From NCBI GenBank assembly GCA_963745645.1, contig CAVUYD010000004.1:428010-492009 (forward strand): 64,000 nt of DNA, read 5' to 3'. The notes beneath the pieces were generated by a model. That model did not search any database. It was not told where the DNA came from and saw nothing but the letters and a program-made list of their open reading frames with translations. Position 1 is the stretch's first letter. Every line of letters starts with the position of its first letter. The position numbers and the translations under genes are program-made. Below are positions 8,601 through 12,068 of this stretch, one piece after another. The stretch is from an uncultured Actinomycetes bacterium (GTDB taxonomy: Bacteria > Actinomycetota > Acidimicrobiia > IMCC26256 > PALSA-610).

Positions 8601-8673
8601 CTGACCTGCGGAAACGACCAATTCGGTGGAGCGGGTGACGAGGATCGAACTCGCATAGCCAGCTTGGAAGGCT
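8601..8673 (-). repeat. tRNA-Gly 3'-fragment copy 1 (att-like direct repeat)
   Basis: 8627..8673, 'tggagcgggtgacgaggatcgaactcgcatagccagcttggaaggct', is identical to the 3' 47 nt (anticodon loop to CCA) of the tRNA-Gly at 11995..12041. The preceding flank 'ctgacctgcggaaacgaccaattcgg' is nearly identical to 11967..11994. Confidence 0.85.
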
Positions 8674-8927
8674 ACGTGTCGCAACGCTGTGACAAGCACG
8701 AACGCTTCGATTCCGCCGGCTCAGGCCGCGAACAGGCCCGCGTACGAAGTCCCTCGACGATCTAAGGGATCGGCGACGAGCAGCGTCGGAAGTCGCCTCG
8801 GCAGACGTCGACGACAACTGGCGTATACGCAGACGGCCAGGCCTCGCTGAGGACTTGCCCGCGCTGTTGCACGAAGTGTTTACCCAGCGCGCTCAGCTGG
8901 ACGACGAACGAGTCCCCGAGCCGTTGC

Positions 8928-9356
8928 TCAGGTCGTGAGCGATGCTTCGAAGGTGATCACGGGCACGCTCGCGAGCGCTCGACTCACCGGGCAGCCGTTC
9001 TTGGCTGCGTTGGCGTGCTCGATGAACGCAGCCTCGCCGATGCCGGGTACTCGCGCGATGGTGACCAGGGCGATCTTGGTGATCGTCGGTGTGCCGTCTA
9101 CTGGTCGCAGCGTGACCGTGGCCTCGGTGCGCACCGAGTCAGGCGGGGTGCCGGCCTTCGCGAGCATGTTCGAGAGCGCCATCGACAAGCAGGCTGCGTG
9201 AGCGGCGGCGATCAGCTGCTCCGGGTTCGAGCCCGGTCCGTCCTCAAAGCGGGACTTTTGCGTGTATCCCCCGCTGATGGTGTCGCCCGCAGTGAACGTT
9301 CCTGCTCCCGTCGGCAGGTCACCCTTCCATTCCGCGCTTCCCGTTGCTGGCATCAC
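8928..9356 (-). CDS. osmC: OsmC family peroxiredoxin
   Basis: The 142-aa ORF is intact. 'GSAEWKGDLPTGAGTF...SRFEDGPGSNPEQLIAAAHAACLSMALSNMLAKAG...ITKIAL...VPGI...AKNGCPVSRAL' is collinear with E. coli OsmC, including both catalytic Cys contexts. Confidence 0.9.
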   Translation of the reverse strand: MMPATGSAEWKGDLPTGAGTFTAGDTISGGYTQKSRFEDGPGSNPEQLIAAAHAACLSMALSNMLAKAGTPPDSVRTEATVTLRPVDGTPTITKIALVTIARVPGIGEAAFIEHANAAKNGCPVSRALASVPVITFEASLTT

Positions 9357-9513
9357 GAGCTCCTCGTCGTCGTGCCCTCTGGTCTACCGCAAACCGAGAC
9401 CCGCAAGGCCGTCGGCGTCATCGCGCGGTGGCGCCTGGTCGTTGTAAGGTCCCCGCGCGGTCGTGCACCAACGCGCGACGTGCAACGAGCAGCGAAGCGG
9501 GGTCGCGGTGAGA

Positions 9514-11108
9514 ATGCTCGGATCGACACGTGTGGTCGCGGCGTGCGCAATGCTCGCGCTCGGTGCCAGCGGCTGCATCTTCACGGCACGCGTCGATGTC
9601 AACTCGGCTGGCGTGCAGGGCGACAACGACGTCATCGCTGTCGCGCCCGCCATCTCGAAGGACGGTCGCTTCATCGCGTTCCAGTCGAGGGCGGCAAACC
9701 TCGGAATGGTGGCGCCGCTGTCCGGGGGGAACGTGTTCAAGCGGGACATGCAGACGAACACGACGACACCGGTCAGCGTCCCGACGAACGGGCCTGGATT
9801 CGCACCCAACGGTGCGACCATCGGTGAGCCGGCGATCTCGGATGACGGTCGGTACGTGGCGTTCGCCTCTGGTGCGAGCAACCTCGTCCTCGGCGACACG
9901 AACAACGTGATCGACGTCTTCCGGCGCGATACCACCAACGGCACCACGGTGCGTGTTGACCTCGACGTCGACGGCAACCAGATCACCTCCGGTGCGACGG
10001 GCGGGACGAGGCCGTCGATGTCGGGTAACGGCCGGTACGTGACGTTCGTGACACAAGCGCAGGTGACCACCGACGACGTCCCGGGAAACATGTCGGTGTA
10101 TCGGAAGGACATGAACTCAGGCGCGGTGGTCCTCGTGAGCAAGGGCAACGGATTCACGGATGGCACGAACCCATCGATGTCGCCGCGACGGCAATGTCAT
10201 CGCGTTCGAGTCCGGGAGCGCATTGGTGGCCGGCGACGTCGGCTTGACCGACGTCTACGTACGCAACATCGAGCGCGGCAACCGTTCAGCGCGCGAGCCT
10301 TTCGTCCGCAGGTGTCCAACCGAACGATCATGCGAGCGACCCCGCGATCTCGGGCGACGGCACGCGAGTCGTCTTCTTCTCCGCGGCCACGAACATCGTC
10401 GGCAGTGACCCCAACGGATTTCGGGACGCATTCGAACGCGTGCTCGGCTCCAAGGAGACGGTCCGGGTGACGCTCACCAGCTCCGGTGCATTGCTCAACG
10501 GACAGCTATCGGTGACGTCGGCGGCGACGCGTTGTCCGGCGGGCATCTCCGATGATGGGCGCTACGTAGCGTTCATGACGACGGCCACAAATCTCCTCGC
10601 GAATGATGCGAATGGAAGTTTGGAGACCGTGTTCGTACGAGACACGCAGAAGAACACCACGACGCTCGTCGACACCGACCAGAACGGCACCCAACACGCT
10701 TCCGGGAACTCGGTGTGCCCGCAAGTCTCCGGCGACGGCCGCTACATCGCCTTCGCCTCCAACGTCCAGCAACTGGTCACGCCCGACACCGAGAACTACG
10801 ACACGTATGTGCGCGCAAACCCGATTCCGACGGTCGCGAACGCGTCGCCCACTACCGCGGGCCGGGGCACCAGCGTGACGATCACGGTCAACGGTACGTA
10901 CTTCCTCCCCGGCGTCGCCGGGCACTTCATCGGTGACGGCATCACCGTCACGAACACGAGCCGAGTGAGCGAGACGCAAGTCAAGTTCACGATCTCCGTC
11001 GCGGCGAACGCGACCGTCGGCGAACGCACCGTCATCGTCTACAACTTGGGTACCGGCGCCGGCACCCTGTCAGGCGCGACGACGCAGTTCTCTCTGAACG
11101 TGACTTGA
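9514..11108 (+). pseudogene. Putative lipoprotein with TolB/PD40-like beta-propeller repeats and C-terminal Ig-like domain; frame-disrupted
   Basis: The signal/lipobox is 'MLGSTRVVAACAMLALGASGC'. Repeated blades include 'DGRFIAFQSRAANL', 'DDGRYVAFASGASNLV', 'GNGRYVTFVTQAQV', 'GDGTRVVFFSAATNIV', 'DDGRYVAFMTTATNLL' and 'GDGRYIAFASNVQQLV'. The C-terminus reads 'TSVTITVNGTYF...VKFTISVAANATVGERTVIVYN'. The pieces lie in ORFs 9463..10470, 10160..10408 and 10440..11108, so at least 2 frame changes are needed. Confidence 0.7.
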
Positions 11109-11291
11109 TCTGCCGCGCGTCAGGCCGTCGTGATCGGCACACCGGACCGTGGCTCGCCGGGTGTAGTTGATGGGGTGGTCGACATCGCTGACGCACAAGT
11201 GGCGAACTCCCTTCCGACCCGATGGAACCACTTGGCTGTTGGTCGGATCGCGCCGATCCGCGCGAGCCGTTGTCGACGGACCCTGCGCCGA

Positions 11292-11359
11292 GCGGAAACG
11301 ACCTGAATTGGGTGGAGCGGGTGACGAGGATCGAACTCGCATAGCCAGCTTGGAAGGCT
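11292..11359 (-). repeat. tRNA-Gly 3'-fragment copy 2 (att-like direct repeat)
   Basis: 11313..11359 is identical to the same 47 nt of tRNA-Gly. The flank 'gcggaaacgacctgaattgg' resembles the other two flanks. Confidence 0.85.
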
Positions 11360-11429
11360 CGGTATCACAGCCGTATGACCTGGCCAAACTCTCGGCTTTC
11401 GACGTCTCAGGCCGTGAAGAGGCCGCGGG

Positions 11430-11970
11430 TCAACGCGCTGCATTCCTCGCGCCCGGCGTAACCATCGGCCTCATCGTCGAGCGTGCAGCAGGCAGTCACT
11501 GACGATGTGTGAGCGCGGGACGGGTCAGGACGACGGCGCTGGCGTGGCCCACGCCTGCGAATCGAGGGTGCCGTCTATCGCGGCTTGGGCGACGTCCGTC
11601 AGGTGGAGGGTTATGTATCCGGGCGTAGTTCCGCAGGCGGGAGAACGCCTCGGACATTTCGACGTCGGCACGTTCAGCCTCTGGGTACAACCGAGTTTCC
11701 GGGGTCGCGGCCTGGCAACTCGGCTCATCGCCGCCGCCGAAGCGGAGGCGATAGCACGCGAACTGCTCGCAGACGGTCCACTTCACCTACGACTTTCAGG
11801 CGCGCGCGCTCTATGAGCGCAACGGCTACGAACTCGTGGGTCGCGTCGAGAACTTCCCATCGGGGACCGACGTCCTCTGGTACCGCAAACGCCTGAAGGA
11901 ACGCGCAGAGACGCCGGCAACATCACGAGATGCAACGAGCATCGTGAACGGGCCCAGATCGGCACGCTGA
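11430..11970 (+). pseudogene. GNAT family N-acetyltransferase; frame-disrupted, 5' end uncertain
   Basis: ORF 11505..11816 contains 'FSLWVQPSFRGRGLATRLIAAAEAEAIAREL', an acetyl-CoA-binding R/Q-x-x-G-x-G/A motif. After a shift near 11790 the reading is 'VHFTYDFQARALYERNGYELVGRVENFPSGTDVLWYRKRL', ending at TGA 11968-11970 inside the tRNA flank repeat. Confidence 0.6.
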
Positions 11971-11994
11971 CCTGCGAAAACGGCCTGAATTCGG

Positions 11995-12068
11995 TGGAGC
12001 GGGTGACGAGGATCGAACTCGCATAGCCAGCTTGGAAGGCTGGAGCTCTGCCATTGAGCTACACCCGC
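11995..12068 (-). tRNA. tRNA-Gly (anticodon UCC)
   Basis: The reverse complement folds as a cloverleaf of 74 nt. Acceptor stem GCGGGTG/CACCCGC; D arm GCTC-AATGGCA-GAGC. Anticodon stem CCAGC/GCTGG with loop CTTCCAA. T arm GCGAG-TTCGATC-CTCGT; discriminator T plus encoded CCA. Confidence 0.9.

Follow-up and report, generated by a model that had tools for sequence, protein, structure and literature searches.

A probable additive array of integrase-free islets at the 3′ end of a tRNA-Gly(UCC) gene in an uncultured acidimicrobial genome

Tandem accumulation of integrated elements at one chromosomal target has been described in several settings. In actinomycetes, the integrative and conjugative elements (AICEs) AICESav3728 and AICESav3708 lie in tandem in an Arg-tRNA gene with a 44-bp attachment (att) site between them (PMC2440964), and cis-mobilisable elements (CIMEs) and their accretion at att sites have been reviewed (PMC5704250). 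In the tycheposon-seeded islands of Prochlorococcus, serial integrations displace older elements inward, with partial tRNAs remaining as traces (bioRxiv 10.1101/2020.12.28.424599), and the additive flexible genomic islands of Alteromonas are made of cassettes marked by a tRNA-fragment repeat (PMC4898812). In the Islander collection, the anticodon-centred att type was counted 2083 times, and a tandem array is accepted there only if each member carries its own integrase (PMC4383910). Here we describe a 64,000-nucleotide stretch of contig CAVUYD010000004.1 from an uncultured member of the Acidimicrobiia (assembly GCA_963745645.1), hereafter the window, in which a tRNA-Gly(UCC) gene is followed by two further copies of its own 3′ half and by two small islets bounded by these copies. 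The locus type, that of CIMEs, additive islands and tandem tRNA islands, is already described; the instance is new. We consider it likely that the locus is an additive genomic-island array, formed by successive integrations of the tyrosine-recombinase type at the 3′ end of tRNA-Gly(UCC).

Three copies of a tRNA-Gly 3′ half and their arms

ARAGORN reports three tRNAs in the window, a single one of which is a tRNA-Gly(tcc): an intact gene with an encoded CCA at 11995–12068 on the minus strand, matched by Rfam (RF00005) over 11998–12068 with 67.6 bits, no second tRNA being found by Rfam within 8000–12600. We refer to the 47 nt TGGAGCGGGTGACGAGGATCGAACTCGCATAGCCAGCTTGGAAGGCT, which run from the anticodon stem/loop of this gene through the encoded CCA, as the core. 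A first-pass annotation, made from the letters of the stretch, had reported that this segment recurs exactly at two more sites in the same orientation, and the 47-mer search confirmed this. Together with the 3′ end of the intact tRNA (copy 3, 11995–12041), exact copies occur at 11313–11359 (copy 2) and at 8627–8673 (copy 1, the most distal in the window), all three annotated on the minus strand and co-oriented, matched as written on the plus strand. In 100 shuffles no match to the 47-mer arose, even with 3 mismatches tolerated, and no additional copy, exact or degenerate, was found in the rest of the 64 kb. Copy 2 is not recognised as a tRNA by ARAGORN or Rfam. The identity of the copies begins at the AGC–CTTCCAA boundary, 3 nt ahead of the anticodon loop, and extends through the CCA, with imperfect similarity continuing for 24–60 nt past the 3′ end of the core. 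Both extra copies lie on the 3′ side of the tRNA gene only, in direct orientation, the flanks differ among the three copies and the intervening DNA is unique.

Each copy is set within recurring flanks. We denote by P the arm upstream of a core, which replaces the tRNA 5′ half, and by F (P′-type) the arm downstream; similarity was scored by semi-global alignment as a z value against shuffles, over the 65 nt after the core for F and the 75 nt before it for P. On the downstream side, CC(G/C)AATT comes after the core at each of the three copies and precedes a related F arm: F3 (11916–11994, minus strand, beginning CCGAATTCAGGCCGTTTTCGCAGGTCAGCGTGCCGATCTG) after the intact tRNA, F2 (11289–11312, minus strand) after copy 2, an arm that diverges once about 24 nt (CCCAATTCAGGTCGTTTCCGC) have been passed, and F1 (8567–8626, minus strand, beginning CCGAATTGGTCGTTTCCGCAGGTCAGAGGGCAGATCTGAT) after copy 1. 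The alignment of F3 with F1 gave z = 12.5, with similarity over about 55–60 nt, that of F3 with F2 z = 7.0 and that of F2 with F1 z = 6.2. On the upstream side, the tRNA 5′ half at copies 1 and 2 is swapped, from 3 nt before the anticodon loop, for P1 (8674–8748, minus strand) and P2 (11360–11434, minus strand), which share 50 of 72 aligned positions (z = 9.6); within repeat family D3, 8620–8738 aligns with 11306–11424 at 81% identity over 119 nt. The similar downstream flank on every copy and the upstream similarity of copies 1 and 2, both described in the first-pass annotation, are thus borne out.

The same arms recur at a syntenic locus of a relative, L002 (see below). F3 is homologous to the first 80 nt after the L002 tRNA; against this attL flank F3 scored z = 11.9 and F1 z = 10.5. 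The arm at the L002 scar is similar to P1 (z = 7.2) and to P2 (z = 5.7), and by blastn P1 together with its core aligns to L002 18815–18932 at 80% over 120 nt. F1 is also similar to the flank of a scar in an unrelated genome, L001 (z = 7.5).

Read from right to left, the order is therefore tRNA; F3, a GNAT gene and P2; copy 2; F2, a PD40-repeat gene, an OsmC gene and P1; copy 1; and F1 with the left arm of the window. Copy 3 has the make-up of an attL-type junction, and copy 2 that of an internal junction, attP-like in combining P2, core and F2. Short motifs recur at fixed offsets within the arms: GGCCTG is present once or twice per P arm, 59–70 nt before the anchor (P1 at −70 and −59, P2 at −59), CAGGTC lies at −28 from the anchor in P2, and CAGGTC followed by GATCTG lies about 20 nt past ...CACCCGCTC in F3 (offset +62) and F1 (offset +60). 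Their density of about 3 per junction, compared with 0.77 per 360 nt in the window, shows conservation and not independent enrichment, since the junctions are homologous. A coding reading of the P arm (GL(F/V)xx followed by a stop) was not convincing, and the arm was treated as a DNA motif. A candidate attC-like hairpin at the junctions was also rejected, because folding was no better than in shuffles (z = −0.75 to +1.19).

Occupancy of the site in relatives and contents of the islets

Two syntenic loci, L002 and L006, were reached through homologues of the TetR gene that neighbours the tRNA. L006 is 91.7% identical to the window over 11997–16000, and L002 (11528–7389) is 84% identical to window positions 11916–16000; at the protein level, the window, L002 and L006 have a common gene order up to about 25000, taking in the YtfJ-like, TetR and ABC-transporter genes and continuing past a tRNA-Pro gene. 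In L006 homology to the window stops at the tRNA-Gly 3′ end, in L002 about 80 nt past it, and beyond those end points the three loci are mutually dissimilar, with entirely different cargo. In L006, a single tRNA-Gly is followed by unrelated genes, with no second core in the 7.4 kb to the contig end. In L002, the tRNA is followed by an F-type arm, a 7.4-kb islet encoding a LuxR-type regulator and two PD40 proteins, and then a scar at about 18879–18933 made up of a P arm, a core with one anticodon-loop mismatch and CCACCGAATTC; the flank past this distal scar is not F-like (z ≤ 2). L003, which represents the species of L002 in another sample, has an islet start of identical arrangement, the distal scar being visible in L002 only. 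In two distant lineages (TetR 68–69% identical), gene lists place AbiEii/SNIPE-nuclease or DUF4062 genes directly after TetR. Two further TetR homologues, L007 and L008 (64% identity), were rejected as comparison loci, being too distant and without the tRNA.

Because relatives that share the gene order on the 5′ side of the tRNA carry different genes after it, the site appears as a variable hotspot and not as a conserved or misassembled repeat; judged from these alignments, the tRNA-Gly 3′ site is a hypervariable hotspot. The relatives differ at the site, and the same three copies with conserved synteny were not found in them. The earlier reading of the copies as att-type junctions at the tRNA-Gly 3′ end is accordingly supported by their start at the anticodon loop, their direct orientation, their position downstream of the gene and the divergence of relatives at this point.

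The tRNA-Gly genes of L002 and L006 are the same as that of the window up to ...CACCCGCTC, where they end without CCA. The CCA is encoded by the window gene at 11995–11997 and is absent from the orthologues at L002 11445–11450 and L006 11410–11415; in L002 it occurs only on the displaced scar copy.

Among 185,579 GTDB species representatives, the exact 47-mer was found in L001 only, as a scar in an unrelated actinobacterial metagenome-assembled genome (MAG) that has no synteny with the window. The L001 scar is followed by GDSL lipase, ABC transporter and phosphoribosyltransferase genes, the best protein matches of the lipase being 52–71% identical over part of the query. The 47-mer had no matches in IMG/VR or JGI metagenome contigs, and relaxed 44-nt and 40-nt cores had none in metagenome and viral contigs, a collection that evidently does not contain the contig of L002.

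Islet 2 (11360–11994, 635 bp), bounded by exact copies 3 and 2, is a single gene set between the F3 and P2 arms. The arms account for about 150 bp of its length, and the space between them is sufficient for a full-length GNAT gene. The gene present, a GNAT acetyltransferase in two frames (11505–11970, plus strand; Pfam Acetyltransf_1), gives a single-frame match to positions 62–91 of the profile; with the frames joined, the match covers positions 50–116 of 116 (E = 1.9e-10), the N-terminal third being unrecognised. Its stop codon, TGA at 11968–11970, falls within the F3 repeat flank. Islet 1 (8674–11312, 2639 bp), bounded by exact copies 2 and 1, has a PD40-repeat lipoprotein gene and an OsmC gene between its F2 and P1 arms. 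The PD40 (TolB-like) repeat gene (9463–11108, plus strand) is spread over three frames, with shifts near 10170 and 10280 in a frame plot of third-position G+C (GC3); Pfam finds PD40 in both of its large open reading frames (ORFs) and an Ig-like domain, Qn_am_d_aIII, at the C-terminus, and a 38-nt repeat family, D1, corresponds to the repeats of the protein. A homologue search did not return the same PD40 cassette elsewhere, the nearest non-self homologue being ≤49% identical. The OsmC-family gene (8928–9356, minus strand) is an intact ORF that matches Pfam OsmC over profile positions 3–98 of 100 (E = 4.1e-15). The gene content that the first-pass annotation had assigned to the two islets, and the GNAT stop inside the repeat flank, therefore hold up in Pfam and in the reading of the ORFs.

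The PD40 gene thus has two frame changes and the GNAT gene one. Core cell-function genes of the same window are broken as well: mreB (45556–46680) and clpP (about 38900–39640) each extend across three frames, and the neighbouring TetR gene (12466–13381) is also split. The window assembly is rich in single-base indels, and the frameshifts in PD40 and GNAT are most likely assembly errors. Because mreB, clpP and TetR are split too, the broken frames in the islets are no evidence of decay, and the earlier description of the islets as decayed cannot be read from them. For annotation of this genome, broken frames are not to be taken as pseudogenes.

To the left of copy 1, positions 1–8566 begin with an F-type arm and encode an NHL-repeat protein (within 268–1788), an eCIS_core/DUF4157 protein (5282–5941) and an OmpA-domain protein (5983–6672), together with several large ORFs without a family match. 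The ORFs of this left arm have GC3 values of 0.71–0.83, lower than in most ORFs on the right-hand side of the tRNA; the arm has no counterpart at the L002 or L006 loci. A tail-like locus had been proposed here in the first-pass annotation; neither Pfam nor PHROGs supports it, no sheath, tube, baseplate or phage function being found in the left arm and the sole match related to contractile injection being the eCIS_core (DUF4157) protein. F1 is of the element-side arm type and the terminal-looking flank of L002 is not (z ≤ 2), so that the left arm may itself belong to the array as a third element. On this evidence we lean slightly towards a third element whose far end lies beyond the window, and the outer boundary is probably not at copy 1; no distal boundary or further core copy was found within 1–8600. 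Of the earlier proposal of two successive insertions, the part that at least two occurred is retained, and the placing of copy 1 as the outermost scar is doubtful, F1 being F-type (z = 10.5–12.5).

Several further observations concern the surroundings of these loci. G+C dips to 0.62–0.65 in 7000–13000, on both sides of tRNA-Gly, compared with 0.69 for the window, and the dip takes in the YtfJ-like and TetR genes that are conserved in relatives. A second tRNA-side variable region lies beside tRNA-Pro(UGG) (18346–18418, minus strand), on its 5′ side, where a 942-aa BNR/Sortilin-Vps10/Calx-beta gene (18550–21375) is without a counterpart in L002 and L006, which have other genes there. In L001, a short AT-rich tandem repeat (CAGATATACA twice, 7738–7760) lies about 90 nt past the scar flank. 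The gene lists of distant contigs with P0013 and P0012 (JGI 3300056388, 3300043331) have genes of the defence type after TetR, namely AbiEii accompanied by a small partner gene, a DUF2510/SNIPE/T5orf172 nuclease, or DUF4062. Look-ups of identical proteins for the OsmC, YtfJ-like and TetR genes of the window, and for protein P0003 of the source contig, gave no match.

Integration model, integrase search and rival explanations

In the model that we favour, circular elements would carry an attP composed of a P arm, a tRNA copy from anticodon loop to CCA and an F (P′) arm, and would recombine serially with the tRNA gene in a tyrosine-recombinase-like manner, the strands being exchanged at the anticodon loop. 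The full tRNA would be remade each time from the copy on the element, and the earlier 3′ half, with all that lies behind it, would be shifted further downstream. We infer the type of recombinase and the order of events from the copies, the arms and their layout, which are seen directly. The internal junction of P, core and F is a prediction of tandem integration of related elements (model: PMC2440964, PMC5704250). The presence of CCA on the window tRNA, and not on its orthologues, fits a 3′ end brought by an incoming element. The first-pass annotation had also considered the islets to be cargo left by imprecise excision, which is unlikely, because each junction retains both arms.

No enzyme of the kind that this model calls for was found at the locus, and several results weigh against the model. 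Pfam scans of about 48 window ORFs, those of the islets and the left arm among them, detected no integrase or recombinase, the rest of 12.8–25 kb being judged through precomputed Pfam annotation of the syntenic L002 and L006 genes; the window past about 36 kb codes for core functions (trigger factor, ClpP/ClpX, MreB, PBP2, RodA, RNase E/G). In five lineages, the 7–9 kb that follow the tRNA or TetR gene showed no integrase, and a six-frame reading found no integrase remnant beside the P arms. All three fully bounded islets (0.6 and 2.6 kb here, 7.4 kb in L002) are without an integrase and have kept both arms, a pattern that plain random decay does not predict. In L002 CCA is present only on the displaced copy, and the native 3′ end may be of either form, with or without CCA. 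Finally, neither a precise empty site, with the tRNA joined to the region left of 8601, nor the same islet relocated was found among the relatives compared, so that movement of the islets is something we infer rather than saw.

The wider search for a mobile partner was likewise negative. No integrase was found in the readable part of L001, tblastn with a Gordonia phage tyrosine integrase gave no match, and neither islet has an excisionase or replication gene, as had been noted earlier and as Pfam, the six-frame reading and tblastn agree; no relic genes of integrative and conjugative or integrative and mobilisable elements (ICEs/IMEs) were seen in the islets. Scans of phage, plasmid, viral, metagenome and GTDB sequences returned no autonomous relative, and when copy 1 and its arms were compared with phage and plasmid records by blastn, only the generic tRNA-Gly part was matched. 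In Gordonia phage BENtherdunthat (L009, MG099939.1), this match is an unannotated 48-nt segment (30957–31004) with 85% identity to the 3′ part of tRNA-Gly, and the tyrosine integrase gene (31782–32852) begins about 0.8 kb downstream of it; the segment is probably the attP core of the phage. The same tRNA-Gly-like match occurs in many Gordonia and Streptomyces phages. Since temperate Gordonia phages carry such a segment near the integrase, the target is therefore one used by actinobacterial elements. The two bounded islets, having no recombination, replication or transfer genes, are non-autonomous today and could move only with an integrase acting on these sites from elsewhere. The lack of integrases together with the kept arms leans slightly towards cassettes that have always depended on an enzyme in trans over decayed elements.

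Taken further, these features raise the question of whether the islets are working integrase-free cassettes, each combining one or a few cargo genes with a full P-core-F site, that an integrase encoded at another genomic site, or brought in by a visiting element, would capture, excise and reshuffle at tRNA-Gly, making the locus an integron- or CIME-like additive array. Such a reading would account for three of three bounded islets being integrase-free with significantly similar arms, for an islet 2 that is just one gene between two arms in 635 bp, for the absence of an integrase within 7–9 kb of the site in five lineages, and for cargo that is wholly different between close relatives; the seeming gene decay that might speak for dead elements is itself accounted for by assembly indels. 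However, neither a candidate trans-acting integrase nor a second occurrence of any cassette was found (the nearest PD40 homologue being ≤49% identical), and arms that are just ~65–75% identical fit old dead sites equally well. The junctions show no attC-like hairpin folding (z = −0.75 to +1.2), and a promoter-like site to serve the array is absent. We therefore regard this reading as unlikely. Its boldest form, in which the tRNA-Gly(UCC) 3′ end acts as an integron-like dock where minimal integrase-free cassettes of one to a few cargo genes, with conserved P-core-P′ sites on the tRNA 3′ half, are captured, stacked and exchanged by a tyrosine recombinase encoded elsewhere, so that the islets are the mobile unit and not debris, we consider quite improbable.

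The outer extent of the array bears on a different alternative, namely that only two insertions occurred, copy 1 being a terminal attR, F1 the native sequence downstream of the tRNA and 1–8566 ordinary chromosome. In some actinomycete elements (SLP1, pSAM2), att identity extends past the tRNA end. The L001 scar, where genes of ordinary appearance come after an F-like flank (z = 7.5 against F1), is in keeping with this alternative, as is the lack of a further core copy in 1–8600. In L002, however, the sole case with both ends visible, the F-type flank lies on the tRNA side and the distal flank is not F-like (z ≤ 2), and in the window the left arm has no L002 or L006 counterpart and a GC3 below that of the conserved right side. 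Two insertions thus have an appreciable chance of being the whole story, though one short of even. That the repeats arose without recombination, by assembly duplication, segmental duplication or dispersal of a tRNA-derived repeat, would be in line with the low base-level quality of the assembly and its many indels, and an assembly duplicate had been raised in the first-pass annotation as an alternative. It does not agree with flanks that are unlike at each copy and DNA between the copies that is unique, with copies that are found only downstream, co-oriented and starting at the anticodon loop, with the arrangement of tRNA and LuxR/PD40 islet in two independent samples (L002 and L003), or with the absence of other copies from the 64 kb, and we regard such an origin as highly implausible.

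Comparison with described systems and significance

The proposed additive array shares with CIMEs islets that have attL- and attR-type bounds, lack integration and transfer genes and lie in tandem at one target, with a single att site as the internal junction between neighbouring elements. Structurally, both att sites are kept and the cargo consists of GNAT, PD40 and OsmC genes only, without genes for integration or transfer. In contrast to CIMEs, no relic ICE/IME genes indicate an autonomous ancestor and no integrase-bearing partner is visible; the islets are also very small, at 0.6 and 2.6 kb, and their cis-mobilisation is putative. The regenerated tRNA with displaced direct 3′ fragments, the anticodon-centred core, the att length of ~44–47 bp and the actinobacterial host are likenesses to Islander entries and tandem AICEs. 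Whereas displaced 3′ fragments, a start at the anticodon loop and variable occupancy are all found here, as in tRNA-targeting elements, the islets have no integrase of their own, which sets the locus apart from tandem arrays in the Islander sense, and they lack the replication and transfer genes of AICEs.

With the islands of Alteromonas and Prochlorococcus the locus has in common a tRNA-adjacent hotspot, lineage-specific cassettes, older insertions pushed inward and partial tRNAs. It differs from them in phylum, the nearest named protein matches being from Acidimicrobiales/Acidimicrobiia MAGs, in the absence of an integrase-bearing element at the site (0 of 5 lineages) and in having conserved arms around even a one-gene islet. 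Short integrase-free units of one or two genes, placed head to tail with a repeated site between them, one ORF ending within the site, recall integrons; however, Pfam and a promoter scan found no IntI, attI or Pc promoter beside the array, and what is repeated is the 3′ half of a tRNA together with arms instead of a folded attC hairpin. Next to the tRNA lie the YtfJ-like, TetR and ABC-transporter genes, with no promoter-like site.

The locus offers a clean, precisely bounded example of a tRNA gene seeding an additive island in a poorly studied soil actinobacterial lineage that is represented by metagenome assemblies only. The 47-nt core, together with GGCCTG/CAGGTC on the P side and CAGGTC/GATCTG on the P′ side, can serve as a key when searching for more arrays and for the integrase that is missing here. 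If the islets are mobile units, cassette-style gene capture would extend beyond integrons; if they are not, the array would be an ordinary record of past integrations.

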